From an uncultured Holophagae bacterium (GTDB taxonomy: Bacteria > Acidobacteriota > Thermoanaerobaculia > Thermoanaerobaculales > Sulfomarinibacteraceae): 64,000 nt of DNA. The notes beneath the pieces are model-generated. The model saw nothing but the letters and a program-made list of their open reading frames with translations, did no database searches and was not told the DNA's origin. Shown in pieces: positions 23,601-45,806 of the stretch (the stretch's first letter is position 1; the number at the start of each line of letters is the position of its first letter). Made by a program: the position numbers and the translations under genes. The stretch is from assembly GCA_963754985.1 (NCBI GenBank), contig CAVWIJ010000006.1, positions 27,245 through 91,244 of the forward strand, written 5' to 3'.

Positions 23601-25782
23601 ATGACAAAACCACGGGTCTGTGAGTTTGGCGCTGCGCGCCGTGTGGCGAGCGCCCTCGTCCTCGCCGTGCTCTCGACCGGCGTGTGCGCCGCCCAGATTC
23701 CGGGATCGACCTGGCGCTACTACCGGCCCGGCAACACCGGGATCCAGGGCGACTACAACCAGGCGATCTACATCGGGCCGGACGACGACCCGTGGATCGG
23801 CGGCTACGACCCCGGCTTCGAGGAAGGCGGCGTCGCCAAGCTCGCTGCAGGCCGAGAACCGCTGGATCAACGTCTCGAACATCGACTACCCGGTGATCGG
23901 GCATCCTGACGTCACCGGCACCACGCGCGTCAGCGACATCGTGGCCGACGCCAACGGCGATCTCTGGATGGCCACGTGGCGGAGCGCGCTCACGATGGAC
24001 CCGGAGGTCGGCGGCCCGTCCCTGGTCAACTTCGCCTCGGCGAGCCCGGCGCTGGCCAACGGCGGCGCCCGCGACCTCGACATCGCGCCGGACGGCACGA
24101 TCTGGTTCGCCCTGATCGGCTACGGCGGATACCAGGGCGGCGTCGTCCGGCACACTCCCGGCACCTCCGACTGGCACTACTGGACCGGCGGCTCGGTGCC
24201 CCAGGGGGGCAACGGCTGGCCGCAGCTGGTGTGGAACGTGGCGCACGTGTCGATCCAGCCCAAGCCGGGCGGCGGCTACATCGTGTGGGCCGACAGCGAC
24301 AACAGCTCCGCGATCGTGTCCTTCGACAGCAACTCCCAGCTCTGGACCTTCCACGAGTTCAGCTACACGCCCGGATCGCTGCTCGAGCTGCCGGGCAAGG
24401 ACTGCGTCGACGACTCCGGGAACCTGTGGGCGAGGCGCTTCTCGCACTTCTCGGGCAGCGACCCGGTCTTCTCGCTCGACTATCGCACGCCGTCCGGCAC
24501 CTGGATCGTGCCGCCGCAGCCCAGCCTGCCGGCGGTCAACCCGCCGATCTGGGCCTTCACCGCCCACGGCGACGGCGGAGCCCTGCTCGCTGACGGCACC
24601 AGCCGGATCTGGAGCTTCAACGGCGCCGGCTGGGACGACCTCGGCATCTGGGGCGACTTCACCTCCACCTACAGCCTCGCCGTCGACAGCCTCGGCAACG
24701 TCTGGGCGAGCGGCGTCGGCGGCGCCGGCGAAGCGCGACGTCGCGACCGGCCTCTGGCAGCGCCACCGGGTCAGCAACAGCAGCCAGTACGACACCTTCA
24801 ACGCCGACCTGCACATCGATCCGGCGACGGGTCGCGTGGCGGCGTGCGCCAACGCCGGTTCCGGCGTCGGCGGCATGACGATCTTCGACGGCGTGCGCTG
24901 GACCGGCTTCAACAACGACCAGTACGGGCTCGGCGAGCCCTGGCCGTTCCCGTCCGACAACTGCCAGGAGGTCGCCTTCCGGCCCTCGACCGCAGGCGTG
25001 GTCGCGAACCCCACCTACGCCGGCCTGCACGAGTGGGACGGTGCGACCTGGACGGATCTCGGCGGCCGAGCGAGAGCCGCGGGCTCGTCGAGGACTCGCT
25101 GGGCCGCCTGTGGTCGCTCGGCCTCTACTACGACCTGCGCTACTTTGACGGGACGAACTGGTTCCTGGTGCCGAACAACGGCGCCGGGGGCGTCAACCTC
25201 CAGCGCGACCCCACCCGTCCGGGGACGATCTGGGCGAGCACCGACGCCGAGGTGATCCGCACCGACGGGAACTACCGGTACTCTCGCGACTACACCCAGT
25301 TCCCGCAGCTCAACCCGCAGAGCGACCTCTTCAGCACGGTCGCCGCGGCGCGGGACGGCATCGCCTGGCTCGGGTCCACCCAGGGCATCTTCCGCCTCGA
25401 CGCCGAGGCCGGGACCTACGACTACTTCACCTCGCTCGGCGGCATCTCGGCGATGAACGCCAGCCCGCTCGCCGTCACCCCCGATGGCCTGCTCTGGTAC
25501 AACGTCTTCGACCCCTTCGGGACAGGACCGCACGGACTGGTCTGGTTCGACGGCACGAACGCTGGGATCTACCCTGCCCCGCGCGGTGGAGAGCCGCAGT
25601 GGGGCGGACTGCCGCACGCGCAGATCGCCTCACTCGAGGTCCGCATCGTGCCGGGCGGCTACGAGCTGTGGATGAGCTGCCTGTCGCGCGGCATCGCGGT
25701 GCTGTTCGTGCCCGCGGGCTCGGTCTTTACGGACGGCTTCGAGTCCGGCGACACCGCGGCCTGGTCGGCGACCGTGCCGTAA
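23601..25782 (+). CDS. secreted beta-propeller protein with C-terminal VFTDGFESGDTAAWSATVP tag; frameshifts near 23845, 24730 and 25065
   Basis: Signal peptide; 'WRYYRPGNTGI.GD', repeated D..G.(L/I)W blades; the fragments join into one protein. Confidence 0.8.
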
Positions 25783-25835
25783 GGCCGCGCCGGCAGCCGC
25801 CGCGGTCCAAATAGCTCGACCGCTGATCTGCCGGC

Positions 25836-27218
25836 TCAGCCCACCGGCACGCGGAGCTTGGTCGCGAGGTTGTCGCCGATCCACTTCGCGTCGAGCCATT
25901 CGAGCGGGTCCACCGACTGGCCGTGCACGAAGATCTCGAGGTGGAGGTGGTCGCCGCCGGCGAGGCCGGTCGCGCCGCTCGAGCCGATGATGTCGCCCTT
26001 GGCGACGCGGTCGCCGGCCGCCGCGCTGACCGCCGACAGGTGGCCGCACAGCGAGAGCACACCGTAGCCGTGGTCGATCACCACGGCGTTGCCGTAGAGG
26101 CTCATCCAGCCAGCGTAGACGACCTTGCCCGAGTTGGGCGCCGGCACCGGCGCCCTTGCGGTCGACGCGAGGTCGAGCCCGAGGTGGGTCTGGCGGTCGA
26201 CCTGGCGGCCGTTGTAGACATAGCTGCGGGTCTGCGCGAAGTTGGCCTCGAGCGCCGTGTTGGGCATCTGCAGGAAGGGCCCGGACCACAGGAAGGCGGG
26301 CTCGCTCGCGCCGGCGAGCGCTGCAACCTCGGCCAGCTCGGCGCGCCGCAGCTCGCCGTTGATCCGCAGGTACTGGTCGAGCAGGGATCCGGAGGCGTCA
26401 AAACCCGGCGTCTGGCTGGCGATGGCGGGCACCACCCGCTCGAGGAAGGCGTCGCTCACGTCAATGGTGTCGGTGCGCGGCGGCATCGGCTTGAAGAGGT
26501 CGAGGAAGGGCTGCTCGGCACGGTTGCCGGCGTCGTCCTCGGCGAACAGGCGGATCTGCGACGAGTCGGCGACGTTCCAGGGCAGGGCGTAGAGCACGAA
26601 GCGGTCGCCACCTGAGCCGCCGGGGAGAGGGGAGCCGACGGAGACGACGTCGCCGGCGCGAACGCCGGAGCGCGCCGCCGTCTCGCCGACCCGGTAGACC
26701 ACCGCGCCGCTGCCGCCCTGGCGGGCGTAGTGCTGGGACGACAGGAGCTCGAGCCGCGGCGGCCGCCGCCGCACCGCAAGCGTTTGCTCGACCACGACCG
26801 GCTCGGGCGTCCGTAGGGCGCCGGCCGCCCGCTCGGCGACCGCCCGCAGCGTCAGCTCGCCCTCCTGCAGCCAAGGGAAGGCCTCGGTGCCGAGCGTTGC
26901 CTCGAGCGCCGCGTCGGTGGTGCCGCCCCCGAGGAACGGCAGGCCGAGCCCGCGTTCGAAGCGCTGCTCGGCGACGACCTCAGTGCGGCCGCCCTGGGTG
27001 AGCTCCACGCGGATCGCGCCGAGCCCGCGCCCGGGCTCGCTGAAACGCGCGGTCACCAGGTTCGACCTGCCCACCGCCGGCCACTCGGTCTCCAGGGTGA
27101 TGGCCGGCGCCGGGCCGACCCGCAGCGCGAGCCACAGGCCGATGACGGCGATCACCGCCGCCACCACCAGCAGGAGAGCGATCGGGGCTCTGCGAGACTT
27201 CTTCGAGCTGACGAACAT
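25836..27218 (-). CDS. M23 family metallopeptidase, N-terminally membrane-anchored
   Basis: HLGLDLAS (HxxxD), YGNAVVIDHG, GHLS, TGLAGGDHLH, VDPLEW. Confidence 0.93.
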   Translation of the reverse strand: MFVSSKKSRRAPIALLLVVAAVIAVIGLWLALRVGPAPAITLETEWPAVGRSNLVTARFSEPGRGLGAIRVELTQGGRTEVVAEQRFERGLGLPFLGGGTTDAALEATLGTEAFPWLQEGELTLRAVAERAAGALRTPEPVVVEQTLAVRRRPPRLELLSSQHYARQGGSGAVVYRVGETAARSGVRAGDVVSVGSPLPGGSGGDRFVLYALPWNVADSSQIRLFAEDDAGNRAEQPFLDLFKPMPPRTDTIDVSDAFLERVVPAIASQTPGFDASGSLLDQYLRINGELRRAELAEVAALAGASEPAFLWSGPFLQMPNTALEANFAQTRSYVYNGRQVDRQTHLGLDLASTARAPVPAPNSGKVVYAGWMSLYGNAVVIDHGYGVLSLCGHLSAVSAAAGDRVAKGDIIGSSGATGLAGGDHLHLEIFVHGQSVDPLEWLDAKWIGDNLATKLRVPVG

Positions 27219-27398
27219 GCGCTTGCCTCCCGCGCCGAGGCGCGTCGGGGCGAGAGGATAGCGTATCCCGAGGAGGTTGCGAGCGCCATCCGGCTCGGGA
27301 CGCTGCTCACCATGGCTGCGGTGCCCCTGGTCCTCACCGCGCTGGTGTGATCCGGAGCGCCCGTCGATCGGCGTGGCCGGAGCTCCTGCCCTCGGGGC

Positions 27399-28124
27399 TC
27401 AGCCGAAGGGGATCTCCTCTCGCTTCCCCTGCACCATGGAGTAGCAGGTGCCGGGCCAGAACCAGGGCTCGTTGCCGGGGCCGTGGACCTGGATGCCGGC
27501 GAGCACCGCCCAGTCGTCCTCGATCGCATCGAGGGTCTGCCCGATCAGCGTCTCGAGGTCCTCGACGATGGCCCGGTAGGCCGCGCCCGTGAGGTCGACC
27601 AGGCTCGGCAGCCGTCCGAACGGCAGCTCGCGCAGCAGCCGCTGCTTGAGCAGGCTGTGCTCGATGTCGCCGGGGTCGGTGCCCAGCGCCACGCGGCCGC
27701 TCTCGAGCTCGCCGAGGAAGGCGCGGAGCGCGCCGCAGGCGTGCGAGGTCCCCGGCCGGCCGATGCGGCTGCAGACGCCGAGCTCGCCGCCGGCGCCGAT
27801 GCCGATGTGGGGGGCGACGAAGAACACGTAGCGCTCGCGGTCGTCCTCGATCGGGGCGTGGCGGCGGGCGGCGGCGAAGCCGGTGCGGCCGACGAGCAGC
27901 AGCCCGGACAGCGCCGAAAAGCCGAAGGGCCACCCCCACAGCGCGTGCACGGCATAGGTCAGGGTGTGGCAGATCTCGTCCCGGCAGACGCCCACGCAGG
28001 CCAGCGTGTTGTCCGGCGAGAAGCCCCGCTCCTGGGTCAGCAGCCGGGAGCTCTCGTCGACGAAGTCCTCCTCGCGCAGCGCTCCCGGGAAGTGCTCCTC
28101 CCTGACCGACTCGAACGACGCCAT
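27399..28124 (-). CDS. LCIB/LCIC-like (theta-type) carbonic anhydrase domain protein
   Basis: FPGAL, 'NTLACVGVCRDE', 'GRTGFAAARRHAP', 'ERYVFFVAPHIGI...GELG...R.G....ACGAL', 'GIQVHGP'; Cys-His-Cys zinc ligand set. Confidence 0.82.
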   Translation of the reverse strand: MASFESVREEHFPGALREEDFVDESSRLLTQERGFSPDNTLACVGVCRDEICHTLTYAVHALWGWPFGFSALSGLLLVGRTGFAAARRHAPIEDDRERYVFFVAPHIGIGAGGELGVCSRIGRPGTSHACGALRAFLGELESGRVALGTDPGDIEHSLLKQRLLRELPFGRLPSLVDLTGAAYRAIVEDLETLIGQTLDAIEDDWAVLAGIQVHGPGNEPWFWPGTCYSMVQGKREEIPFG

Positions 28125-28334
28125 CCATCACCCCCTGCTGCCGCGCGTGAGAGGCCCGTCTGGTGCCCGCAGTGTAGCGTGGCGCGCCCTCCAGACCGGC
28201 ATGAGCGGCGAGGCGCCGGGGCCGCTGAGCCGGCCGCGCGTCGAGAACCGGTGCCCCCCGGACCGCGTATCGTTGGGGTGAGAAGCGGCGGGCGCCGCGC
28301 TGCCGCGGCGCCGCACCGCCGGGAGGGACCGACG

Positions 28335-29270
28335 ATGACCGAGCAGGAGACGAGGGCGATCCTCACGATCTGCCTGATGGCGGCGTTCGCCGACGGTGCC
28401 AAGGACGAGCGCGAGCGGGAGCAGGTGCGGCGGGTCGCCGCCACGCTGACGGGCGACGGCGCGACCGACCTCACAGGGGCCACTCACGACGTGCTGCTGA
28501 AGGGGACCGCGGTCGAGGAGGCGGCAGCTGTCCTCGGCTCTCCCGAGCTGCGGCAGCTCGCCTACGAGATGGCAGTCGGCGTGTGCGATGCCGACGAGGC
28601 ACGCAGCGCTGCCGAGATCCAGTTCCTCGACCGCCTGCGGGGCGCCCTCAGGCTCGAGCCGAGCGCCATCGAGCCCTTCCAGGCGCAGGCCGACGCGCTC
28701 GCCGCCGAACCGGTCGTGGTCAGCGCTGCAACGTCTGCACCGGGGGCCACCGGCAGCGCCGAGCTCGACCGCATGATCCTCAACACCTCGATCCTCAACG
28801 GCGCGCTCGAGCTGCTGCCGCAGACGCTCGCCACGATGGCGATCATCCCGCTGCAGATGAAGATGGTCTACCGGATCGGCACGGCGCACGGCTTCGAGCT
28901 CGACCGCGGCCACATCAAGGACTTCCTGGCCACGGTCGGCGTCGGCCTGAGCTCGCAAGCCATCGAGCGCGTCGGCCGCCGGCTGGTCGGCGGCGTGCTC
29001 GGCAGGCTGGGCGGCGGCCTCGCCCGCCGGCTCGGCTCCGCCGCCACCGGATCGGCCTTCTCCTTCGCCACCACCTACGCGCTCGGGCACGTCGCGAAGA
29101 GCTACTACGCCGGCGGCCGCACCCTGGATGCGCAGCGGCTCAAGGAGTCGTTCGCGTCGCTGCTCGGCGAGGCGAAGACACTCGAGGAGCGCTACCTGCC
29201 CGACATTCGAGAACGGGCCCGCACCATCAACCCGGGCGCCCTGCTCGACCTGGTGCGCCGGCCGGTGTAG
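28335..29270 (+). CDS. TerB-like domain + DUF697/YcjF-like membrane-associated protein
   Basis: 'AILTICLMAAFADG.KDERER', 'LAYEMAVGVCDAD..S.AE..FL..L', 'ELLPQTLATMAIIPLQMKMVYRIG..HG', 'FATTYALG.VA..YY'. Confidence 0.8.
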   Translation: MTEQETRAILTICLMAAFADGAKDEREREQVRRVAATLTGDGATDLTGATHDVLLKGTAVEEAAAVLGSPELRQLAYEMAVGVCDADEARSAAEIQFLDRLRGALRLEPSAIEPFQAQADALAAEPVVVSAATSAPGATGSAELDRMILNTSILNGALELLPQTLATMAIIPLQMKMVYRIGTAHGFELDRGHIKDFLATVGVGLSSQAIERVGRRLVGGVLGRLGGGLARRLGSAATGSAFSFATTYALGHVAKSYYAGGRTLDAQRLKESFASLLGEAKTLEERYLPDIRERARTINPGALLDLVRRPV

Positions 29271-29310
29271 GGCGGGGCACTTCAGCCCCCACCAAGCGCT
29301 GCTGTCCGGG

Positions 29311-29468
29311 TCGTTCCCGTTCCCGATCCCGTTCCCGATCCCGTGCCCGTTCCCGAGACGACGGCAGGCGCTCAGTCAACCGTCGGTGCCGGCGCTCACG
29401 AAGAACGGCGCTCCCCTGTCCCGTCGCATCCCATCCGGGTACGGGAACGGGAAGGGGAACGGGAACGG
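29311..29468. repeat. inverted hexamer-array element (CCCGTT/CCCGAT)7 ... (ACGGGA)~5
   Basis: Seven CCCGWK units at 29316-29357 and complementary ACGGGA units at 29436-29468, between convergent genes. Confidence 0.85.
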
Positions 29469-29493
29469 ATCGCAGCAGCCTCGCGAGCTTGGG

Positions 29494-30504
29494 TCAACCC
29501 ACCTTGAGCAGCTGCTTGCCCCGGTTGGCGCCGGTGAACAGCCGGCGCAGCGTGCGGGGCGCGTTCTCCAGACCTTCCTGGATGTCGACCTCGACGCGGA
29601 TCTCCCCGGCCTCCACCCAGCGTCCAAGCTCGGCGACCGCTTCGCCGGTGCGGTGGAGGTAGTCGAGGATGATGAAGCCCTCCATGCGGCCGCGCTGCAG
29701 GAGCAGGTTGAGGTAGTGGCGCGGCCCCGGTCCGAGCTCGCTGCGGTTGTAGTCCGCGATCGCGCCGCACAGCACGACCCGTCCCTTGAAGGCGAGCCGC
29801 GCCAGCGCGGCGTCGAGGATCTCGCCGCCGACGTTGTCGAAGTAGATGTCGATGCCGCCGGGGCAGAGAGCGGCCAGGCGCGCCGCGACGTCCTCGCTGC
29901 GGTAGTCGATGGCGGCGTCGAAGCGGGCCTCGTCGACCAGCCAGCGGCACTTGTCCTGGCCGCCGGCGATTCCGACCACCCGGCAACCCTTGAGGCGGGC
30001 GATCTGACCGACCACCGAGCCGGTGGCGCCAGCGGCGCCCGACACGACAACCGTCTCCCCCGCCTCCGGCCGGCCGATCTCGAGCAGCCCGAAGTAGGCG
30101 GTCAGACCGGTGACGCCGAGGGCGCTCATCGCGATCGGGATCGGGACGCTCTCGGGGACCACGTTGAGCCTGGCCGAGCTGCCGTCCAGCAGGGCGTAGT
30201 CCTGCCAGCCGAGGAGGCCCTGGACCAGCTGGCCCTCCTGATAGCCCGGGTGCCGTGACTCGACGACCCGGCCGACCCCGAACGAGCGCATCACCTCGCC
30301 GATCGCCACCGCCGGCAGGTAGGTGTCGCGGGCCATCCAGCCTCGTTGGGTCGGATCACATGACAGGTAGAGGGTGCGGACGAGCAGCTGCCCGTCCGAC
30401 GTCAATCCGGGGGCCGGCTCCTCGACCCAGCGGAAGTGCTCGTCACCCACCATGCCCTCGGGCCGCGCCGCCAGGCGCCACTGCCGGTTGGTTCTCGACT
30501 CCAT
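29494..30504 (-). CDS. NADP-dependent oxidoreductase (MDR; CurA/YncB/prostaglandin reductase-like)
   Basis: NRQWRLAARPEG, YLSCDP..RGWM, LGVTGLTAYFGL, VSGAAGATGS, YFDNVGG, LCGAIADY, G.NRGK. Confidence 0.93.
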   Translation of the reverse strand: MESRTNRQWRLAARPEGMVGDEHFRWVEEPAPGLTSDGQLLVRTLYLSCDPTQRGWMARDTYLPAVAIGEVMRSFGVGRVVESRHPGYQEGQLVQGLLGWQDYALLDGSSARLNVVPESVPIPIAMSALGVTGLTAYFGLLEIGRPEAGETVVVSGAAGATGSVVGQIARLKGCRVVGIAGGQDKCRWLVDEARFDAAIDYRSEDVAARLAALCPGGIDIYFDNVGGEILDAALARLAFKGRVVLCGAIADYNRSELGPGPRHYLNLLLQRGRMEGFIILDYLHRTGEAVAELGRWVEAGEIRVEVDIQEGLENAPRTLRRLFTGANRGKQLLKVG

Positions 30505-30918
30505 GCCATCCTCCGTCGATCTCTGGTCCGTTCACTCGGCCGCCGGCTGTCCGCCGTCCCGGCGGGACGCGCAGGCACCAAGGGAAGCGTCGCCGGCCTG
30601 AACGGCATTCCGAGTTAGAATCCACGGCAGAGAGCCCAGAGGGTCCAAAGCTCCATGCCGTCGCCGAGGGCGACCGCCGCCGTCATCGTGCTCCTTGCCG
30701 TGATGGCTGGAGCCACGCCAGCCGCGGCGCAGCACGCGACCACCGGATCGCTGGCCGGGTCCGTGGCCGGAACGGGCGGCGATCCGCGCCGCATGGCCGA
30801 CGCGCGCGGGCTGTGACGCTCAGGGCCGGACAGCCTCCACGCCCGGGGACTGGGAGAGTGGGGAAACCCGGGCGGCGCGCCCCCCGAGAGGGACGCGCCG
30901 CCCGCATCGGACTTCGGA

Positions 30919-32374: not shown

Positions 32375-32527
32375 GATGAGGACCTCCCTTTTGTCTTGGC
32401 GGCGGTTTGCCAGTCGTTTCATTGACATCAGTCCACTTCCGGCCCCGGCGGCCAGCGCGCCGGAAGTGGCCAGCGGTGCGCGACATCACCACCGGGGCGC
32501 GATTCGTCGGAATGTAAAGACTAGTTG

Positions 32528-32555
32528 ACGATAAGGTCCGGAGTCGATCTGTCAA
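32528..32555 (-). promoter_or_regulatory. sigma70-type promoter for the aminopeptidase gene
   Basis: Minus strand TTGACA-N16-TATCGT in an AT-richer intergenic patch. Confidence 0.5.
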
Positions 32556-32685
32556 GAGACCATGTCTCACAATCTATGCTCGAGCACCCGCCCTCCGCAG
32601 ATCGCCAATGGACGGCCAGGGACACGAGATGACGACCGACCTGGACCTCAGGAGCACCGCGCGCGCGAGCTGATCGCGGCTGAAC

Positions 32686-34787: not shown

Positions 34788-35053
34788 GGGGACCTCCCGC
34801 GCGCGGCCTCGCGATGGATCGGACACTGACCCGCATTCTGTTGCCCGCGGGGCGCTGTCGTTGGTTGTGCCTCCCTTCAGTATAGGGCTCTCCGGCGATC
34901 GCCGGGCGCTGCCCGCCGGCCGCCTGCTCTTGACTTTCCCGGCGTTCGGCTCAATCGTGGAAGCGAGGAGATTCCGAGAACAGCACGACAGCAGGCCCCT
35001 CCGCAGCGACATCGAGCGGTCGCGGCCCGTCCCAACTAAAGGAGGATGGAGAG

Positions 35054-36172
35054 ATGATCCGAAGTTCGGTTCGGCTCGCAGTGATCGTGATGGTGATGAC
35101 CGCCGCGGCCGTTGTGGCGCAGGCCGGCGACGACCAGGAGTGGGGCGGCACGTGGCAGAACGGTCCCCCGACCACCTTCCCGCAGGCCTTCTCGCGCTTC
35201 GACGGCGCCTATGACCCCGGCACCGGCCTGGTCTACTTCCTGGGTGGCCGCCTCGCCGACGCCAACACCGACGGCAGTATCTGGACCTTCAACCCCTCGA
35301 CCGGCATCTACGCCGACACCGGTCTCGACATGCCGGTCCCGATCTCGAACTACACCATCAACGTGCTCAACGACGCCACCGGCGAGGGCTACTACGTCTT
35401 CTGCGGACGGCCGTCGGCTGGCGGCGTGGTGACATCCGTCCAGGTCTACTACCCCGCCACCAACACGGTGATCCAACTGCCGCCCGCCGACGACTTCCCC
35501 GGCGACGCCACCCACTCGTGCAGCTCGGCTCTCAACGCGGTGGTCAACAACAAGGTCTACATGGCCGGCGGCTTCAACGCGACGGCGATGAGCGAGCAGA
35601 CGTGGGTCTTCGATCCGATGGCGCCATCGGGGAGCAGGTGGACCCGGATCGCATCGGCCGACCTCGCCGTGGCCAGGGCTTACATCATGGGCGCGGTGGT
35701 CGACGGCAAGATCTACGCCGTCGGTGGCGCGTCGTGGGACGGTGCTGCGCTCATCAACCTGGACACGGTGCAGATGCTCGACCCGGCCGCCCCGACCCCG
35801 ACCTGGACACCCTTGGCATCCCTGCCCGAGGCGTGCTCGAGCTCGCGCGCCTGGGGCTTCGACACCGGCAGCCTCTACATCGATCCCAGCGATATGACCC
35901 CGCTTTCCGGCAAGATCATCAGCGGCTGCGGCTTCTGGTCGACGGCCATCCAGGCCGTCTACGCCTACACCGTGGCCACCAACAGCTGGGAGGCCTTCCC
36001 GCCGTTCCTCACCGCCCGTCGTGACATGGCGGGCGAGCTCATTCCCATCGCCGGTGAGGAGGCACTGTGGGTCTGGGGCGGTTACGACGGCACCAGCGCC
36101 AACACCACGACCGCCGAGTACTACACTCTCGGCTTGATTCCGGTGGAGCTGCAGACATTCACCATCGAGTAG
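35054..36172 (+). CDS. secreted Kelch-repeat beta-propeller with C-terminal IPVELQTFTIE tag
   Basis: SD AAGGAGG; signal peptide; Kelch blades VYFLGG, KVYMAGG, KIYAVGG, LWVWGG; PVELQ tail. Confidence 0.88.
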   Translation: MIRSSVRLAVIVMVMTAAAVVAQAGDDQEWGGTWQNGPPTTFPQAFSRFDGAYDPGTGLVYFLGGRLADANTDGSIWTFNPSTGIYADTGLDMPVPISNYTINVLNDATGEGYYVFCGRPSAGGVVTSVQVYYPATNTVIQLPPADDFPGDATHSCSSALNAVVNNKVYMAGGFNATAMSEQTWVFDPMAPSGSRWTRIASADLAVARAYIMGAVVDGKIYAVGGASWDGAALINLDTVQMLDPAAPTPTWTPLASLPEACSSSRAWGFDTGSLYIDPSDMTPLSGKIISGCGFWSTAIQAVYAYTVATNSWEAFPPFLTARRDMAGELIPIAGEEALWVWGGYDGTSANTTTAEYYTLGLIPVELQTFTIE

Positions 36173-36196
36173 CCGATCACGCAGCAACGTCAACCC

Positions 36197-36227: not shown

Positions 36228-36344
36228 CCCGACTCACTGCGTCTCCTGATCCGGGCTAGTCCGACCGCGCGGGTCGCCGCCACCGCGGTCCACGCGGACC
36301 GGTTGGTACAATCACCGTTCTGAAGCAAGGCCGGGCGTCATGCG

Positions 36345-37653: not shown

Positions 37654-37682
37654 GTGCGTGTGGGGCATAGGCCCCTCGGCGC
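37651..37682. mobile_element. single end of the miniature element, copy 3
   Basis: TAGGTGCGTGTGGGGCATAGGCCCCT is the reverse complement of 9042-9067 with one mismatch; begins at the TAG stop codon. Confidence 0.65.
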
Positions 37683-37797
37683 ACGCGGGTCGCAGGCCTC
37701 TGGGTGAGTGTGACGCGTCGCGGTCGCAGGCTGGCCTGCGACCCGCGTGCGCCGAGCGGGATGCGCGCGCTCCGGCGGCGTCGGCTACCATGGGGGC

Positions 37798-39315
37798 GTG
37801 AGCGCGCCGCTGCGCATCGTGGTGACCGGCGCCTCCGGCTTCGTGGGCCGGCTGCTCGTGACGCTGCTCCGGCGCCACCACCACGTCGTCGCCGTCGACC
37901 GGCGCGCGCTCGGCGCGTCGGAGATGGCCGACCACCCGAACGTCGAGTGGTACCAGGTCGACCTCTGCGACCGCGAGGCGGTCGAGGGCACGATGGCCTG
38001 CATCGCGGCCGGCGGCGGCGCGCAGGTGCTGCTCCACCTGGCGGCCTACTACGATTACTCCGGCGAGGAGCACCCGGAGTACCAGCGCACCAACGTCGAC
38101 GCCCTGCGGATCCTGCTCGACGCCGCGCGCCGCCTCTCGCTCGAGCACTTCGTGTTCGTGAGCTCGGTGGCGGCCTGCCCGTTCTCGCGGCCCGGCCACC
38201 CGATCACCGAGGCCACACCGCCGGACGGCGGTCACATCTACGCCCGCACCAAGGCGGCCGGCGAACGCATGCTCGCCGAGCACACCGGGAGCTTCACCCC
38301 GCTCATCGTCCGCCCCGCCGCGCTGTTCTCGGACTGGTGCGAGTACCCGCCGCTGCAGGTGCTGCTCGACACCTGGCTGTCGGGACGATGGGACGCCCGC
38401 ATCCTCGCGGGCCGCGGCGCGTCCGCCATCCCCTACCTGCACGTCCGCGACGCCGCCTTCTTCATGATGCGGCTGCTCGAGCGCCGCCATCAGCTCGCGC
38501 CGCTCGAGGTGCTGATCGCCGGCGAGGACGGGGCGATCTCCCACCTCGATCTCTACCGCGCCGCCACCGCCTACGCCGAGGGCCGTGCCCGCTCGGCAAT
38601 CCACATTCCGCGGCCGCTGTGCAAGCCGGGCATCTGGCTGCGCAACCTGGCCGGCCGCGCCCTCGGCTCGCGGCCCTTCGAGCGGGCATGGATGGCCGAC
38701 TACGTCGACCGGAGGATGGAGATCGACGCGAGCCGGACGAGGCAGCGCCTCGGCTGGTCGCCGAACGAGCGCCTCGGGCTGCTGACCCGGCTGCCGTTCC
38801 TGATCGAGCGCCGGCGCGACAACCCGATGGAGTGGTACCGCCGCAACCGCGAGGCGCTGGAGCACCTGGAGCTCACCCCGAACTTCCGGATCTACCGGCT
38901 GATGAGGCGCTACGAGGAGCAGATCGAGCAGGAGCTCGGCGACGCGCTCCGGCGCCGGCCCCGAACCGCTCCGGCAGGCCCGGCCCTGACGCCCGAGCAG
39001 CGGCTCCGGGATCACCGGGTGACGATCCGCAACCTGCTGGCGTCGGTCCGCACCGGCGACAACGAGCTCTTCGTGAGCTGGTGCGGAGACCTCGCCGAGC
39101 GCAGCGTCGCAAGGGGCCTCGATGAGGACGAGGTCGTCTTCGCGTTGGGCTCGCTCGACTCGATCACGGTCGACACGCTGCGCGCCGACCCGGAGGGGGC
39201 GCCACTCGCGCGATCGCTGCGCGAGCTCGTGAGCACGAGGATCGCCTTCGGCATCGACCGGGTGCTCGAGGTGTACGAGGACGCCAGGGCCTTCGGCGTC
39301 GACCAGGGCCGATGA
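37798..39315 (+). CDS. NAD-dependent epimerase/dehydratase (extended SDR) fused to a C-terminal helical domain
   Basis: VTGASGFVG, HLAAYY, FVSS, catalytic YARTK; extra C-terminal domain of about 150 aa. Confidence 0.88.
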   Translation: MSAPLRIVVTGASGFVGRLLVTLLRRHHHVVAVDRRALGASEMADHPNVEWYQVDLCDREAVEGTMACIAAGGGAQVLLHLAAYYDYSGEEHPEYQRTNVDALRILLDAARRLSLEHFVFVSSVAACPFSRPGHPITEATPPDGGHIYARTKAAGERMLAEHTGSFTPLIVRPAALFSDWCEYPPLQVLLDTWLSGRWDARILAGRGASAIPYLHVRDAAFFMMRLLERRHQLAPLEVLIAGEDGAISHLDLYRAATAYAEGRARSAIHIPRPLCKPGIWLRNLAGRALGSRPFERAWMADYVDRRMEIDASRTRQRLGWSPNERLGLLTRLPFLIERRRDNPMEWYRRNREALEHLELTPNFRIYRLMRRYEEQIEQELGDALRRRPRTAPAGPALTPEQRLRDHRVTIRNLLASVRTGDNELFVSWCGDLAERSVARGLDEDEVVFALGSLDSITVDTLRADPEGAPLARSLRELVSTRIAFGIDRVLEVYEDARAFGVDQGR

Positions 39316-39370
39316 ACAGATCGGAGCCGCTCGGGAAGACAGGCCGGCGCTCCATGGGTTGGAGGATGTG

Positions 39371-40174
39371 ATGTCCTCGACAGCACGCGGTCGCCGGGAG
39401 CGCGCCCTCGCCCTGATCGGCGCCCTGCTCTCCACCACGGCTCTGATCAGCTACTTCACGCTGTCGGTGAGGATCCCGAGCCTGCGCGACAGCGCCTGGC
39501 TCAACCTGCTCGCGGTGGTCGTCGGCCTCGGCCTGTCGATCGCGGCCGTCGCGCGGCGAAGGTCGGTCGTCTCCTCCGCGGGCCTCGCGCTGTCCATCCT
39601 GTGGACGGCGGCGCTGTTCGGCTTCGTTTTCCTGCTCTCCGAGCAGCTCCCGTCGCCGGCGGCAGCCGTCGGGGTCGGCGAGACCGCACCGGCATTCGAG
39701 CTCCCCGACCAAAGCGGGAAGCCGGTCGCCCTGTCGGACTTTGCCGGATCCAAGGTCGTGCTGGTCTTCTACCGCGGGTTCTGGTGACCCTTCTGCCGGT
39801 CGGAGCTGCAGGTCCTGCAGTCGCGCATCACGGATATCAGGGCGGCGGGCGCGGAGCTCGTCGCCATCTCGGCGGACTCGGTGGACGACAATCGGCGGCT
39901 GGTCGAGGGTCTTGGCCTTGGCTTCCCGGTGCTGTCGGACAGCTCGCGCGCGACGATCGCCGCCTACGGGCTGGTCCATCGCGGTGCCGGGCCCGGGGGA
40001 GCCGACATCGCGCGACCCGCTACCCTGCTCGTCGGCCGCGACGGGACCGTGCAGTGGCGCCACCTGACCGAGAACTGGCGGGTCCGCGTCAGTCCGGACG
40101 CCATCGTCGCCGCGGTCTCGGAGGCGGCACACGAGCCGCAGCCCGGCCCGAGCGTCACGCCCGATCAGGACTGA
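39371..40174 (+). CDS. membrane-anchored peroxiredoxin-like (AhpC/TSA) selenoprotein with UxxC motif; in-frame TGA at 39785-39787
   Basis: Three TM helices, VGETAPAFELPDQSG.PV.LSDF.G..VVLVFYRGFW-TGA-PFCRSEL; same frame continues to ELVAISAD, FPVLSD, ARPATLLV..DG.V.W and stops at 40174. Confidence 0.88.
39788..39825 (+). promoter_or_regulatory. bacterial SECIS element
   Basis: Hairpin GCTGCAG-GTC-CTGCAGT (39805-39821) begins 17 nt after the TGA; resembles the E. coli fdhF SECIS apical stem-loop UGCAGGUCUGCA. Confidence 0.75.
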
Positions 40175-40309
40175 GGCGAGCGCTCCGCCCCGCGGAGTGC
40201 CTCGCACGCGTCGCCGAGCCCGGCCTTCGCGTGAGGCTCCTCGTGGAGCGACAGCGACACGCCAGCGGCGATCGGCACGGGCCGCTGGTCACAGCGCGGC
40301 CTGGTGGGC

Positions 40310-42080
40310 TCACGGCCGAGAGGATCCGATCCAGCGAGCCCCAATGGTCGCGTTGATCGTGGTCCCGCGAGCGTGCCAGGGCTCCAGGACGAAGGGGGCC
40401 GCCGGCTGCAGCCGACCCGCCACCCGCCGAGTCAGCGTCAGCACCGGCAGCTCGAGCCGCGACGGGTGGTCGGGCCCGAACCGCAGCACCGGATGCGCGA
40501 CCACCGGCGAGGTCGGGATGTTGAGGTCGCCGCCGTCGTTCGGGTTGACCTCGAAGCGCGGCCAGTTGCTGCCGGACACCGCGATGCGGATGCGGTGGCC
40601 GGCGTTGAACACGATCGCGGTCGACCACAGCTCGACCGTCACCTCGACCGGGACCCCGGGCGTCAGCAGGCACTCGCGGTCGTCGCCGCAGCGCATCCGC
40701 GCCCGCTGCAGGCCGTCGAGCACCAGCATCGAGCGTCCGTCCGGGTAGACGTCGGTCAGCCGGACCGCGAGGTCGAGGTCGGCCGTGTCGGGCACCAACC
40801 ACAGCACGCAGCGCACCGGACCGACCACGGGCAGCGGCTCGCTCAGCGGCTCGGTCGTGAACACCGCGACGTCGTCGCGCGCCTCGATCGGCCGCTGGTC
40901 CTGCGGGCCGTCGCCCATCGGCCGGCCATCCACGATGAGGTCCGGGGACAGGTTCGCGCCGCCGAGCGTGTACACCGGATGGTCGGGATCCGACACCAGC
41001 TCGAGCTCGCCCTCGCCCGGCGCGGTGGATTCGAGCTCACCGTCCGCGGTCAGGAAGAGCTCGCGCGTCGCCGCCCGGGGCGGCCAGCGGTCGAGACCGA
41101 CCCACACGTTGCCGGGCGCGCCCGGCTCGCCCACCGCGCCCATCACGTACGCCCGCACCACCGGCCAGTCCTCGATCGCCGACGGCTCGTCGCGGAGCGT
41201 CGCCTCGTACCACGGCAGCAGGAGATCGATCGGGTCGAGCGCCGCGTTGGCGGGGTACGTGAGGGCCCCAGCCTGGCGCGAGAACAGGTCGTTGTGGGTC
41301 CACGGCCCCATCACCAGGAACTGCCGCCCGGTCGCCCCCGAGCCGCCCCGCTCCTGGAAGGCGGAGAACCCGTCGAGCGTGCCCTGGCCGAAGATGTCGT
41401 ACCAGCCGCCGACGTGGACGCCGGCGGCGTGGACCGAGCCCGCACTGGCGAGCACCTCCACTGGGTCCCACCACGCGTCCTTGAGCCGATGCTGACGAAT
41501 CTCGTCGTAGAAGGCGCTGGCGCCCTGGCTCTCCAGCCAGTTGACGGTCAGCTCCTCACGAATCGCGCCGCCCTGGAGGAACGCGTGGTGGTAGAGATCG
41601 GGGGTCGCCACCACCGGGGCGATCGAGCGCAGCGCGGGATCGGCGCCGGGCGCCAGCAGGTACTGGGGAATGGCGAACGCCGAGCCGCCGAACATGCCGA
41701 TGTGGCCATCGCACCAGGGCTGGTCCGCCACCCACTCGACGGTGACGCGTCCGTCCTCCGCGTCGTCCCGGAACACCGTGTCCTCGCCCCCGGAGTCGAA
41801 GCGGCCGCGCGTGTCCTGGGCGACGCAGGTGTACTGCAGCAGGGTGAGGCCCAGGCACACCTGCCCGCATGCCGTCCTTGTCGTACGGCGTCCGGATCAA
41901 GACCGTCGGCCACGGCCCGCCGCCGAACGGCAGGTAGACGTCGGTGGCGAGCAGCGTCCCGTCCGCGGCCGGGATCGAGATCTCGAAGCTCTGCGCCGGC
42001 ACCGGCGTTGCCGATGCCAGCATCACGGCCATCCCGATGACCGCCGCCGCGGCCCTCAAGCGTGCTTCTGGAGTGCCCAC
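40310..42080 (-). CDS. CocE/NonD family hydrolase, secreted; frameshift near 41865
   Basis: DGTLLATDVYLP..GPWPTVLIRTPY, QDTRGRFDSGG, QPWCDGHIGMFGGS, GGWYDIF, MGPWTH, LTDVYPDGRS, GHRIRIAVSGSNWPRF. Confidence 0.92.
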
Positions 42081-42141
42081 CGCGTTGATTGTACCCGCCG
42101 CCGGCCTTCCGAAACCGACGGTACGAAGATGGCCTGGATGG

Positions 42142-42168
42142 AAAACGCCCCCGCCGGAGCGGGGGCGT
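42142..42168 (-). terminator. intrinsic terminator
   Basis: ACGCCCCCGC-TCCG-GCGGGGGCG-TTTT on the minus strand after the 42195 stop. Confidence 0.75.
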
Positions 42169-42194
42169 GCGAGGTCATGGTCTGATTCGACCGG

Positions 42195-43960
42195 CTACGG
42201 CACCGTGACGCTCCAGCGCGAGGTGTCGCCCGAGTCGAAGCCGTCGACGAAGAGCTCGTCCACGCCAAGCCAGTCGAGCGCCGCTCCCAGCAGCGCGGCC
42301 CGGTCCTGCGGGTTGTCGACCGCCTCGTAGCCGAAGCCCAGGTAGACGATCCTGGCGCCGGACGTGGAGTCGGTGGCGCGGATCGCTCCCTGTAGCTGCT
42401 GCTCCGGTAGCTGAGGATCGCCGTCGCGTCGCTGTCGTAGGGTGCGATCGCGTCCGGGTACTCCTGGTTGTTGGCGCCGTCGCCGCCCTGGATGTGGAGG
42501 ATCGAGGCCATCGGTGATCGGGTCGCCGGCGACCCCGTCGAGATAGTAGATGTTGGTGTCGTCCGTGACGTAGCTCGCGTGCAGGTAGTCGTGGTACCAG
42601 ACCGGATCAACACTGCTGCTGGGATCGGCGAGCTCCCAGCCGATGTCCTGGCCGGTCAGGAACAGCTTGCCGCCGTGGTCGAGGTGCTGGCTGAGGAAGT
42701 CGCGGTCCTCGGCGTCGAGGGTGGGGTAGGCCAGGCCCACCTGCCAGATCAGCAGGCTGTAGGCCTGGAGCACCTCGTCGTTCAGCTTGCCGGCGGCGAG
42801 GTCCCAGACCCCATACGTCAGACCGAGGCTGTCGAGGGCCGCCGTGTAGTAGTTCTCGTAGGTCGTCGGAGCCATCGTCGTCGACGATCAGCACGTCGGC
42901 GTCGTCGGTGAGGTAGCTGAAGGGGATGACCAGCGGCGTCGTCAGGTTGGGCGAGCTGACCTCGAAGTGGAGCTTGATGTACCCCGGCGAGGTCGGCACG
43001 ACGTCGAGCGAGTAGTCGATCGACTCCTCGACGCCGAGGTCGAAGCTCCAGGGGCCGGTGTGGTGGCCGCCCTGGTCGTCCCAGTAGCTCGCGGTCCAGC
43101 CGGCCGGCGCCTGGTCGACGACCAGCTCGATGGTGAAGGTGTCGGCGAACCCGACGTTCATGATGGTGAAGGGCGGGCTCGGCGGGCCGGGCGCCGACGG
43201 CCCGACCTTGACCCGGTCGAAGGGCACCATCGCCCGCACGCTGTAGTCGGGCTCGGGGAAGGTCGACACCGCCTGCAGCACCTCCTTGTCGGCGGCGCGC
43301 TGCACGAAGACCACGGCGTGGAGATTGGCCTGGTTCCAGCTCGGGTCGACGTCGAAGCTCTTGGTGAAGACCGCGGTGTTGCCGGCGCCGGAGAGCGTGA
43401 TGGTGTCGTTGATGATGTCGCGGGTCACGTACGTGTACGTCTCACTCCCGTAGACGACGTCCTGCTCGAGCAGCAGGAAGCGGATGTGGTCACCGGCGAG
43501 GATGTCGGTCTCGGAGTACATCGTGACCGTGGCCTGGATGTCGCCGCTCGCCGGGTCGAGGGAGTTGATCTCGATCCGGACCGGCGCCGGCTGGAAGTAG
43601 GCGCCCCCGACGATCGAGAGGTATCGGACCACCGGTGGCGATCCCGGCGCCGCCGCCAACGACCTTGGTCAGGCCGTTGAAGACCACGGTCGGGAAGGCG
43701 TTGATGCCGTAGTAGGCGAGCGCGGCGTCGGTCTCCGGCGTGCCGAGGCCGCCGCTCGTCGCGTAGTAGCGCGCGCTGAGGAACTCGCCGTAGTTGTAAT
43801 GGGAGTGGACAACGTCCAGCCCCGCGTAGGCGTCGGGGCAGTAGCCGCACCAGGTCGCGGTCGCGTCCTCGGCCAGGGTCGTCTTGGGATAGGCATCGAG
43901 CGCGGCCAGCGGAGCGGCCGCCCCGAGCATCACGCACAGGAGCACAACGGCACGTCGCAT
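42195..43960 (-). CDS. secreted thioredoxin-fold/Omp28-related protein with C-terminal LFVDGFDSGDTSRWSVTVP tag; about 4 frameshifts
   Basis: Signal peptide; LAEDATATWCGYCP; YYGINAFPTVVFNG; 'VDPSWNQANLHAVVFVQ...KEVLQA'; 'ADVLIVDDDG..YY..AL..LG..Y.VWD'; 'GGKLFLTGQDIGW'. Confidence 0.78.
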
Positions 43961-44144
43961 TCCCCACCTCCATCGATTGACGGTCGGTCTGAAGCCACGG
44001 CCGACACGGTAACGCCTTCGAGTTCTCTGGTCAATTGGTTATATCTGAGATGCTATCGCAGTCTCTCGAGCCCAGCCGAGACGAGGGCGAACTCGCTCGG
44101 TGGTGAGGTCGGTCACCGGCGCGCCCCGGCCCTGGCAGACGATC

Positions 44145-45806
44145 ATGGATGTGATGTTCCGACGCTTCGCACCCCACCTGCGTCCCACCCTCCGCTCCGC
44201 CCGCTCCGTCGCCGCGCGACGGGTGATTGTGGTGGTGGTCGCGCTTGGCGGCCTGCTCGTTGCCGCCGCCGCCGCCCGCGACCTGATCGTGTTCGACGAC
44301 TTCGAGACCGGCGACGCGCGCTTCTGGTCGAGCTCGGTCCCGGTGCTCCCGGACACCGTCTGCGTCCCGGCGGCCGAGGTCGTCGAGCCGGCGAGCCCGA
44401 CGGTCCTCGGCGACGGCACGCCCGGCAGCGTGACCCGAGCCGAGATCCAGTCCGCCCTCGACGGCGGCGGCCACGTCAGCTTTGACCTCGGTCCGCTGCC
44501 GCAAACGATCGTCCTCGATGCCGAGCTCGTGATCACCCGCGAGGTCGTGCTCGACGGCGGCGGCCTGGTGACGCTGAGCGGCCAGGACAGCACCCGGGTC
44601 CTCAGGGTGACCCCGGCGTGGAGCCCGGTGGACGCCTACACCGCGACCTTGCAGCGGCTGCGGATCGAGCACGGGCGGGCGGCGGCCGCGCCACCCTTCG
44701 AAGACAGCGGAGGCGCGATCCTCGCGCCCGGTGGCGGCGCCTGGCAGGCCACGTCGCTGGTCGTCGTGGGATGCAGCTTCGTCGACAACCACGCCGTCGA
44801 CTCGGCCCAGGACAGCGGCGGCGGTGCGATCTACGCGATCGGTCTCGAGCGGCTCGCGATCGCCGGCTGCAGCTTCGAGGGCAACAGCGGCTCGAATGGG
44901 GGCGCGGTCTACTCGCTCGGCAGCCGCGAGGTCCACATCACCGGATCCACCTTCCGCGGCAACGCCGCCACCGGCGACGGCGGCAACCCGGGAGACGGCG
45001 GCAACGGCGGCGCGCTCGGCGTCGACGGCGCTGCGCGCCAGGTCCGGATCTGCGGCAGCCGCTTCCTCGAGAACACCGCCAACGCCTACGGCGCCGGGTT
45101 CTTCTCGGTGATGTACGACGACTCGAGCCTCACCGAGTTCATCGCCACCACCTTCGAGGCCAACCGCAACCCGGGCCCGGACCAGTTCGCGGGCGGAGCC
45201 TACGTGCAGGGCGGGCCGTTCGAGATCCGCGACACGACGTTCAGGGCCAACGAGGCGAACGGCGTCGGCGGCCTCTTCCTGGGGCCTCAGGCGACCGGCG
45301 AGCTCAGCAACTGCACCTTTTCAGGAAACGTGGCTCGCACCAGCCTCGGCGGGGCGATCACCGTCAACACCAGCCGTCCGGTGCTGCTGGTCAACTGCAC
45401 CATCGTCGACAACCACGCTCCCGGTGAGGTCGCATTCGCCGCCGGCATCAACGTCGACGCCGACCACGCCCTCACTTTGCGCAACACCATCCTCGCCGGC
45501 AACACCGCCGGCAACCTCTGGAACCCCTGGAACATCCGCCGCACGGTGCTTGACGGCGGCGGCAACCTGCAGTGGCCGCCGACCCGGCCCAACGGCCAGC
45601 CGGAGCCGCCCGCTACCGCGACCGTCGTCTGGGCCGAGCCGATGCTGCTGCCGTGCGCCGACAACGGCGGGCTGACCCAGACCATGGCTCCCGACGACGG
45701 CAGCCCGGCGATCGGCGGTGGAGTCTCCGGCGGTGCGCCGATGACCGACCAGCGCGGTCGATTGCGCACGCCGGCGCTCGACGTCGGCGCCTACGAGACG
45801 CCCTAG
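44145..45806 (+). CDS. secreted right-handed parallel beta-helix protein (GGAI/FxxN repeats, choice-of-anchor Q-like end)
   Basis: Repeats GGAI(Y), CSF..N, TF..N; C-terminal 'ADNGGLTQTMA...GSPAIG.G.....TDQRG..R....DVGAYE'. Confidence 0.85.
   Translation: MDVMFRRFAPHLRPTLRSARSVAARRVIVVVVALGGLLVAAAAARDLIVFDDFETGDARFWSSSVPVLPDTVCVPAAEVVEPASPTVLGDGTPGSVTRAEIQSALDGGGHVSFDLGPLPQTIVLDAELVITREVVLDGGGLVTLSGQDSTRVLRVTPAWSPVDAYTATLQRLRIEHGRAAAAPPFEDSGGAILAPGGGAWQATSLVVVGCSFVDNHAVDSAQDSGGGAIYAIGLERLAIAGCSFEGNSGSNGGAVYSLGSREVHITGSTFRGNAATGDGGNPGDGGNGGALGVDGAARQVRICGSRFLENTANAYGAGFFSVMYDDSSLTEFIATTFEANRNPGPDQFAGGAYVQGGPFEIRDTTFRANEANGVGGLFLGPQATGELSNCTFSGNVARTSLGGAITVNTSRPVLLVNCTIVDNHAPGEVAFAAGINVDADHALTLRNTILAGNTAGNLWNPWNIRRTVLDGGGNLQWPPTRPNGQPEPPATATVVWAEPMLLPCADNGGLTQTMAPDDGSPAIGGGVSGGAPMTDQRGRLRTPALDVGAYETP

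Follow-up and report, generated by a model that had tools for sequence, protein, structure and literature searches.

A terminal peptide tag on bacterial exoproteins and a hairpin-less jelly-roll protein as its candidate acceptor

The window analyzed here is a stretch of 64,000 nucleotides (G000:C6:27245-91244) from the draft genome of an uncultured Holophagae bacterium, which we call G000 and which comprises 4.73 Mb in 32 contigs with 70% G+C. Three genes in this window carry a 19-residue peptide, hereafter the tag, with the consensus F-x-D-G-F-E-S-G-D-x-S-x-W-S-x-x-V-P, which in this genus ends in a free carboxyl group. The tag corresponds to the first two strands of a ConA-like jelly roll related to PL20/PF14099 and is detached from the rest of that domain. 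Elsewhere, the same genome encodes a secreted protein that is homologous to the domain body and lacks the hairpin, and we have named this protein HLJR ('hairpin-less jelly roll'). We propose complementation in trans, in which the terminal hairpin supplies the missing part of the HLJR fold and thereby docks diverse exoproteins to HLJR, and we assign this reading a probability of roughly 0.55.

According to this proposal, about 90 Sec-exported proteins per genome would bear the tag at the extreme C-terminus or, rarely, at the mature N-terminus, and HLJR, which is usually encoded by one gene per genome, would supply the remainder of the jelly roll. After export, the tag hairpin would insert beside the first and last strands of HLJR to complete its sheet, and such donor-hairpin complementation in trans would couple many cargo proteins to a single acceptor. 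This arrangement would explain why the tag is terminal with either end allowed, why it abuts unrelated folded domains without a linker, why it has no membrane anchor, and why the tag and HLJR appear and are lost together. We infer both the binding of the tag by HLJR in the cell and the purpose of the coupling.

A terminal tag on unrelated exported proteins

An initial annotation of this DNA, made from the sequence by a model, had reported three related peptides in unrelated proteins, and all three are present in the window, the second of them on the minus strand (the plus strand at 42198-42254 encodes something other than LFVDGFDSGDTSRWSVTVP). The features concerned are as follows.

23620..25782, plus strand: carrier gene 1, a Reg_prop-type propeller protein (PF07494 Reg_prop, E 4e-07)
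25723..25779, plus strand: C-terminal tag VFTDGFESGDTAAWSATVP of the propeller protein, with the stop codon at 25780-25782; tag profile 41.4 bits (open reading frame C6|+|50849|53023)
42195..43668, minus strand: carrier gene 2, two overlapping open reading frames (ORFs), 42195-42887 and 42607-43668, as after a frameshift
42198..42254, minus strand: C-terminal tag LFVDGFDSGDTSRWSVTVP of carrier gene 2, with the stop codon at 42195-42197; tag profile 41.4 bits (ORF C6|-|69442|70131)
44145..45806, plus strand: carrier gene 3, with a signal peptide, N-terminal tag, right-handed beta-helix (PF13229) and C-terminal choice-of-anchor Q domain
44286..44342, plus strand: N-terminal tag copy IVFDDFETGDARFWSSSVP, 3 residues past the likely signal-peptide cut between ..AAAA and RDL; tag profile 14.8 bits

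All three carriers had been credited with signal peptides, which is clear for the beta-helix protein. The other two carrier genes look frameshifted; the first contains Arg-rich stretches and its reading frame looks disturbed, and its start and signal peptide are uncertain. The 'Omp28-like' label given to the second carrier has weak support, as its N-terminal piece matches PF11551 below the threshold (22.9 bits versus a cut-off of 34.9). Frame breaks are frequent throughout G000, where Arg-rich out-of-frame stretches occur within open frames and genes are split into overlapping ORFs, and one tag (C18:401774-403321) is divided over two frames, with its remainder in the other frame. These breaks look like indel errors or pseudogenes. 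Many tag ORFs are truncated by them, many short tag ORFs are found genome-wide, and the completeness estimate for G000 (71.7%) is lowered because of these apparent frameshifts.

When the 4.7-Mb genome was scanned with a tag profile built from 67 strict copies, the peptide proved to be far more common than its three original examples, with 97 six-frame ORFs reaching the threshold of 14 bits. A regular expression finds 81 tag copies in the six-frame translation. The tag lies at most one residue from the stop codon in 87 of the 97 ORFs; among the remaining ten, nine carry it 2 to 56 residues before the stop (at least one of the ten is split within the tag), and the tenth is the beta-helix protein, whose IVFDDFETGDARFWSSSVP is the sole N-terminal copy in G000. 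Conservation was counted over the 79 copies in the canonical register, with positions numbered from the C-terminal end.

Position -18: F in 73 of 79 copies
Position -16: D in 78 of 79 copies
Position -14: F in 79 of 79 copies
Position -11: G in 79 of 79 copies
Position -6: W in 79 of 79 copies
Position -1: P in 79 of 79 copies

The dipeptide VP forms the last two residues in 60 of these 79 copies. A chance or low-complexity origin of the motif was considered and rejected on the basis of reversed-pattern controls, since neither the 41 relatives nor the 201 genomes of our class sample contain a single match to the reversed DNA pattern. Furthermore, none of the Pfam (2025) and NCBIfam (2026) models matches the tag peptides, even at E<=10.

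By a crude signal-peptide heuristic, 32 of the 87 C-terminal tag ORFs of G000 have a signal-like start. The description of the carriers as unrelated proteins is well founded, because the 40 longest span peptidases, adhesin-like repeats, propellers and lectin-like domains. Pfam matches are found in 32 of these 40 and indicate diverse extracytoplasmic proteins, including peptidases (M14, C25, M43, two M12B and three S8), repeats and other domains (cadherin-like, Big_9, Calx-beta, PKD, fn3, MAM-like), propellers (FG-GAP, Kelch, LVIVD), and beta-helix, BNR and lectin-like domains.

Within the organism's own family, the strict pattern is present in 18 of the 24 genomes besides G000, at 2 to 80 copies each, and it occurs in 0 of 16 genomes of the sister family. 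Among 130 matches listed from public species genomes, the record titles are mostly Thermoanaerobaculia, Holophagae or Acidobacteriota, and 63 of the listed matches stop exactly five residues past the Trp, 37 more end within 12, and 30 run on. The run-on matches among those listed bear record titles that are mostly Chloroflexota, Actinomycetota, Armatimonadota and the like, and they continue as ..W(T/S)....G.L.V......G.Y.. into a larger domain. In a library of 1.84 billion protein representatives, 8347 clusters match the tag (E<=0.001). The best 150 of these 8347 clusters comprise 80 with a single C-terminal copy, 13 with several copies of which the last is C-terminal, 50 with several copies of which the last is not C-terminal, 4 with an N-terminal copy, 2 with an internal copy, and 1 without the motif by regular expression.

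In some proteins the C-terminus consists of two tandem tags. Two motifs spaced 20-24 residues apart are seen at or near the C-terminus of the following proteins or fragments (homologues are given by our own P numbers): P0135, P0139, P0140, P0141, P0145, P0151, P0155, P0160, P0163, P0171, P0184 and P0228.

The tag had been predicted to be portable to either terminus, and this is borne out within a single orthologous family, the homologues of the beta-helix protein, in which it swaps from the N- to the C-terminus. In the closest orthologues (52-91% identity) the tag stands at the start of the mature protein, where it is conserved in P0005-P0021, P0042, P0049 and P0050. In the next homologues (about 56-63%) the N-terminal tag is gone, and a C-terminal tag stands straight after the choice-of-anchor Q domain. 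The window protein itself (P0004) has this domain at its extreme C-terminus (residues 514-567 match NF041518 with 60.6 bits versus a cut-off of 25) and ends DVGAYETP at the stop codon; the same model matches the homologues P0085, P0054, P0071, P0025, P0075 and P0069. A second case of an N-terminal tag is P0197. Gammaproteobacterial choice-of-anchor Q homologues (P0052, P0056, P0062-P0123), with source names that include Marinicella, Wenzhouxiangellaceae and Xanthomonadales, have for the most part an abbreviated tail, usually ..IFxDGFE or something close to it, directly before the stop codon. This tail represents only the first strand of the tag hairpin.

This pattern of placement could also be read as that of a sorting or secretion signal for some other machine, such as an outer-membrane translocon or a processing peptidase, with HLJR being unrelated or an accessory, such as a periplasmic escort that passes cargo to the machine. 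Its role would then equal that of PEP-CTERM, GlyGly-CTERM, MYXO-CTERM or the T9SS C-terminal domain. The tag is confined to the ends of dozens of exported proteins, paralogous as well as unrelated, and is all-or-none across lineages, it follows the choice-of-anchor Q domain where other members would carry an anchor, and its carriers share sub-cut-off regions with rhombosortase-, myxosortase- and T9SS-dependent M36 peptidases and with choice_anch_B. The invariant last Pro would fit recognition of a free end. We nevertheless judge such a signal unlikely. No candidate machine was found, the tag has neither a transmembrane helix nor a basic tail, and it also occurs at the mature N-terminus, a placement that is not known for sortase-type signals. 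Outside this genus the Trp is followed by 0 to about 7 residues, and thus the free end is not a fixed part of the tag. Moreover, the fit of HLJR, the tag-bearing gene that adjoins it and the complex prediction, all described below, would be left as coincidence.

The tag hairpin and the hairpin-less jelly roll

The structural identity of the tag emerges from proteins that carry it in several copies, in which the motif recurs every 190-290 residues. The motif precedes profile position 1 of PF14099 (Polysacc_lyase) by a few residues and falls at about profile position 2-3 of CBM_4_9. For example, P0137 has the motif at 192 and a PF14099 match from 196 (51.2 bits, with a cut-off of 29.9), and P0154 has the motif at 232 and a match from 236 (31.9 bits). 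P0149 also exceeds the cut-off with 36.5 bits, P0125, P0127, P0159 and P0201 fall below it, and P0085, P0054 and HLJR have no match to this model.

P0312 and its relatives are single-domain secreted proteins in which the hairpin comes right after the signal peptide. An AlphaFold2 model of the full domain of P0312, computed with a 50-sequence alignment in which 42 rows bear the hairpin, has a mean predicted local distance difference test score (pLDDT) of 90.7, and the hairpin is placed with pLDDT 90-94 and strands at 30-32 and 44-46. This model superposes on glucuronan lyase 2zzj with Z 20.7 and a root-mean-square deviation of 2.5 A over 198 residues, such that model residues 27-234 align to residues 1-228 of the chain, beginning with the first residue of the chain. 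It also superposes on other ConA-like jelly rolls.

A tblastn search of the full domain against the whole of G000 yields a single match to the domain body, at C13:24935-25516, and the alignment begins at about query residue 34, just beyond the hairpin. The match belongs to the following gene.

G000:C13:24785-25519, outside the window: HLJR, a 244-residue secreted protein and the one homologue in G000

The HLJR gene has its own start codon, a strong ribosome-binding site and a signal peptide (MTRTMRWTMMVIGVLAIGAVPAFA, followed by ANQ..), and the mature protein begins within the loop just past the hairpin. In our alignment A3, 31 rows of small or SLH-fused hairpin-less HLJRs are empty over 24-25 columns, precisely those in which P0312 and P0308 have DPIFSDDFESGNFNAWSAAKTDLG. 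The tag ends at about P0312 residue 47, and HLJR starts at about residue 50. Together, the tag and HLJR make up one domain minus a few loop residues.

A signal peptide followed by a hairpin-less body is seen in 24 of 24 loci, which comprise 10 orthologues (alignment A2) and 14 loci from other families. We considered whether HLJR might be the broken end of an upstream gene created by an assembly error, and rejected this explanation on the basis of its own ribosome-binding site, start and signal peptide and the recurrence of the form at every one of these loci. Most of the 51 HLJR homologues retrieved from a 5.8-billion-protein collection are likewise hairpin-less, the exceptions being P0308 and P0312, which have the hairpin, and P0325, which has half of it. 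All 51 are named 'hypothetical' or unnamed, and the only Pfam domain among them is SLH, which is found on four; none of the Pfam and NCBIfam models matches HLJR. In relatives, the HLJR gene is represented at about 93-96% identity among contigs from the RNA libraries of two studies (X2, X3; X5). Further contigs that cover it come from a library (X1) that is only guessed to be RNA; DNA is possibly present, and contigs cannot rank expression.

The homologues of the beta-helix protein bear on whether the tag needs a partner at all. In P0054, P0057, P0071 and P0085 the motif is followed by a complete domain of about 200 residues where other homologues carry the tag only, which makes truncation a plausible origin. 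The tag might be a truncated jelly roll that persists as a remnant, or it might stand alone as a cap that protects against carboxypeptidases or as a calcium or glycan binder. The abundance of Asp/Glu and Gly in the motif and its terminal Pro would fit such readings. We consider either version quite improbable. The residues of a remnant would not be expected to stay near-invariant in about 80 copies per genome and across all the matching clusters, nor would its relocation to the N-terminus be conserved down to 52% identity or its tandem duplication be expected, and a 19-residue hairpin with three exposed aromatics is unlikely to be stable on its own.

The idea that the tag instead completes HLJR can be examined by structure prediction of the complex, as the initial annotation had proposed. 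HLJR residues 25-244 were folded together with the 30-residue tail of the propeller protein in the window, and an alignment was supplied for each partner. The tag and HLJR score 0.88, compared to 0.01 for the best of 3 controls, a result which indicates that the predicted pieces are compatible with one jelly roll and does not speak to binding in the cell. The mark applied to this score is passed by 58 of 80 solved complexes and by 2 of 110 mismatched pairs. Contact agreement among the runs is at least 94%, and the partner pLDDT is at least 75. In the predicted complex, strand 2 of the tag (S26-T28, W25) lies on HLJR residues 72-77, strand 1 (T14, D15) runs beside the C-terminal strand of HLJR at 240-241, and the tag's Phe17 packs onto residues 30 and 56-58 of HLJR. 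By our own count, with M1 left out, the interface holds 12 of the 21 invariant HLJR columns of A2.

Genomic distribution also links the two elements. In the class sample of 201 genomes, scored by the strict tag pattern and by an HLJR profile match at E<=1e-5, the counts are as follows.

Tag pattern and HLJR match: 27 of 201 genomes
Tag pattern only: 6 of 201 genomes
HLJR match only: 4 of 201 genomes
Neither tag pattern nor HLJR match: 164 of 201 genomes

An HLJR-family match is present in 27 of the 33 genomes with the tag pattern, versus 4 of the 168 without it (31 in total), and the two occur together in nine families. In one family of 29 genomes (f13), only G113 and G116 have either feature, and both have both. 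Among the genomes with HLJR only, there are five variant tags in G145 and a single weak one in G041, and in G200 and G168 the match lies inside large ORFs and no tags are found. Another genome, G021, has 0 strict copies and about ten variant C-terminal tags, plus HLJR. Because full domains trivially give both signals, individual loci were inspected.

Gene neighborhood and fusions of HLJR

In the organism's own genus and in G011, HLJR adjoins genes for an extracytoplasmic function (ECF) sigma factor (Sigma70_r2/r4), an anti-sigma factor of the zf-HC2 type and a membrane protein that resembles LiaF. The order at G000:C13:22000-25519 (L170:5221-8717) is ECF sigma, zf-HC2 anti-sigma, LiaF-like protein, a secreted protein with a tag variant, and HLJR. 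The gene directly upstream of HLJR in 5 of 9 loci encodes a conserved small secreted protein that ends in such a variant, for example ..NIIFRNGFETGDTSAWP at the stop codon.

These neighbors raise the prospect that HLJR is an envelope-stress sensor, in which free tags of exported proteins that accumulate in the periplasm would be bound by HLJR and signal through the anti-sigma factor to the ECF sigma factor, with the main job of the tag lying elsewhere. DegS, which senses C-terminal peptides of unassembled outer-membrane proteins, offers an analogue. The order of the sigma, anti-sigma and LiaF-like genes beside HLJR is kept across the genus and G011, a dedicated small tag-bearing protein sits between this set and HLJR at the loci just mentioned, and one HLJR gene per genome suits a sensor better than a stoichiometric scaffold. 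As a full account of the system, we nonetheless regard sensing as distinctly unlikely. The synteny comes from one family of close relatives, within the genus HLJR flips strand and shifts by several kb, and the fusions of HLJR to SLH repeats and to a tag of its own point to a structural role.

These fusions are of two kinds. SLH domains on HLJR are confirmed with Pfam in P0311 and P0313, precomputed annotations place SLH on P0311, P0313, P0314 and P0321, and SLH-like repeats are seen by eye on the HLJRs of G158, G079 and G012. Additionally, the jelly-roll body of the HLJRs of G017 (L158 C652 and L159 C555) is followed by a C-terminal tag (..MSFADGFEWGDVSGWGAP..), and such self-tagged proteins could complement themselves or form head-to-tail chains.

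If fold completion takes place, the purpose that we favor is the tethering of exoproteins to the cell envelope, by analogy with cohesin and dockerin, because HLJR is fused to SLH wall-binding repeats in several lineages. An escort or sensing role is also possible, because the HLJR of this genus lacks a visible anchor and stands beside the ECF sigma, anti-sigma and LiaF-like genes. The self-tagged HLJRs argue for chains, and the single HLJR copy and its sigma/anti-sigma neighborhood argue for an escort or sensor. A broader version of our proposal would combine these elements into a split-fold docking system for the whole exoproteome, with an HLJR that is SLH-anchored or polymerizing, an ECF/anti-sigma pair that watches for free tags, and a one-strand version of the tag in the tails that end ..IFxDGFE-COOH. 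We offer this version tentatively, at somewhat worse than even odds.

Several observations weigh against completion of the HLJR fold by the tag. The whole case consists of sequence analysis and structure prediction. An earlier AlphaFold2 run of P0312 with a shallow alignment, in which 2 of 34 rows carried the hairpin, left the native hairpin unplaced with pLDDT below 50, and the strand pairing that we describe for the full domain is inferred from predicted contacts in the complex and from fold alignments. Two halves of a known fold tend to pass the complex prediction because they resemble solved jelly rolls. Within the genus, HLJR is highly variable, and A2 contains two types that are about 30-35% identical (G000, G004 and G007 versus G001, G002, G003 and G006), one of them with a Cys-containing insertion (..PGSVAQPGVNCSGDGQPGPCG..).

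The co-occurrence is also imperfect. Of the 33 class genomes with the tag pattern, 6 have no HLJR match (G008, G019, G133, G173, G177 and G185), and among the 41 relatives the tag-bearing genomes without a match are G008, G019 and G023, although absence is not shown for five of these seven genomes because their assemblies consist of 440 to 800 contigs. The HLJR profile also matches full hairpin-containing domains, for example in G020, so that genomes with tag counts of 1-4 could contribute trivially to the co-occurrence. In addition, genomes that are related do not count as independent samples. Finally, the HLJR of this genus has no visible anchor, and the stoichiometry of one HLJR gene per about 90 tagged proteins is awkward, since each HLJR would be used once if complementation is as stable as it is in pili.

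The remaining observations in G000 concern neither the tag nor HLJR. Twelve ORFs belong to a second C-terminal peptide family that ends (V/I)PVELQ(S/T)(F/I/L)x(I/V)E at the stop codon without a hydrophobic helix; two lie in the window, at 9065-9877 on the minus strand and at 34934-36172 on the plus strand, the latter encoding a Kelch-repeat protein, and ten lie elsewhere in the genome. Window genes other than the tag carriers lie at 20327-22480 (minus strand), 16222-19083 (plus strand) and 47163-48644 (plus strand), and such genes include a site-specific recombinase (PF10136, E 2e-175), a lysyl-phosphatidylglycerol synthase (MprF-like) and a TolC-like outer-membrane efflux protein.

Comparison with known systems

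The initial annotation had suggested beta-strand addition to a surface scaffold as one way in which the tag might work, and this suggestion has gained indirect support from the identity of the tag as a jelly-roll hairpin, from the co-occurring HLJR that lacks this hairpin, and from the predicted complex. In chaperone-usher pili, type V pili and TasA, an incomplete beta-sandwich or jelly roll is completed by a terminal strand of another polypeptide. The same two hallmarks are recognizable here, as the acceptor lacks strands (the gap in A3 and all 24 loci) and separate polypeptides carry them at their termini (the tags). Among archaeal bundling-pilus or biomatrix proteins an example is AbpX, for which a preprint describes an N-terminal strand that completes the jelly roll of the next subunit (bioRxiv 10.64898/2026.01.04.697558). 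Like these systems, the tag and HLJR would represent an incomplete fold completed by a foreign terminal strand, and the self-tagged HLJR of G017 could polymerize or complement itself in a similar way. In contrast, the known systems build a filament from subunits of one kind that carry both donor and acceptor, whereas here about 90 unrelated cargos would present a two-strand hairpin to one separate acceptor, and no chaperone or usher is evident.

Engineered split-domain tags provide another parallel. In SpyTag/SpyCatcher and in split GFP with strand 11, all of them man-made, a short beta-strand tag and an incomplete beta-domain reassemble, and SpyTag does so with an isopeptide bond. The natural tag and HLJR resemble these pairs in combining a short strand tag with an incomplete domain, but a covalent linkage is not suggested. 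With regard to fold, the system is like PL20/PF14099 (2zzj), with which it shares the jelly roll, an alignment that starts at the hairpin, and weak to moderate PF14099 matches. It differs in having 12% sequence identity, and no enzymatic activity is claimed; other jelly-roll chains share the general fold only.

The system is also reminiscent of cohesin and dockerin, in that a short module is present on many secreted enzymes and the scaffold is fixed to the wall through SLH in some lineages. A dockerin, however, is a duplicated calcium-binding module of about 70 residues, which folds on its own and attaches to the surface of an intact cohesin, whereas a 19-residue hairpin would join the acceptor's own sheet. 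No dockerin or cohesin Pfam family is listed for the tag, HLJR, its neighbors or the 40 longest carriers.

Among protein sorting systems, PEP-CTERM, GlyGly-CTERM/rhombosortase, MYXO-CTERM, LPXTG/sortase and T9SS/PorU-PorV (T9SS denoting the type IX secretion system) likewise join a lineage-restricted terminal tag to a single partner gene and involve choice-of-anchor families. A PEP-CTERM/exosortase-type signal consists of a motif, then a hydrophobic transmembrane helix, and then a basic cluster at the C-terminus. The tag had been described as having no transmembrane helix, and indeed it ends ..W-S-x-x-V-P directly at the stop codon with no hydrophobic stretch. The T9SS C-terminal domain (TIGR04183) is a beta-sandwich of about 70-100 residues, and the 19-residue tag has no family match to it at E<=10; one carrier, L196, has a partial TIGR04183 match, which is internal (residues 323-362) and not at the end. 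Searches of five genomes (G000, G006, G004, G009 and G011) with TIGR04183 and with the PEP-CTERM model TIGR02595 gave no match, but 14 control genomes were silent too. Unlike the partners in these sorting systems, HLJR is neither a peptidase nor a transpeptidase, and the tag can also be N-terminal.

Text searches of the literature, in which paywalled papers and supplements were out of reach, found no description of the tag/HLJR system. The tag is present in at least 8347 protein clusters from public data. If our proposal is correct, about 2% of genes in Thermoanaerobaculia and their neighbors (judged by record titles), mostly those for peptidases and adhesin-like proteins, would share one handling step that has no database model. 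This would amount to a new principle in bacterial protein sorting and surface display, namely the enzyme-free coupling of the exoproteome to one partner, and it would offer protein engineers a very short natural peptide tag along with the matching receptor. Pili and archaeal matrix proteins are known examples of fold completion in trans, and a general cargo tag with a separate acceptor would be new.

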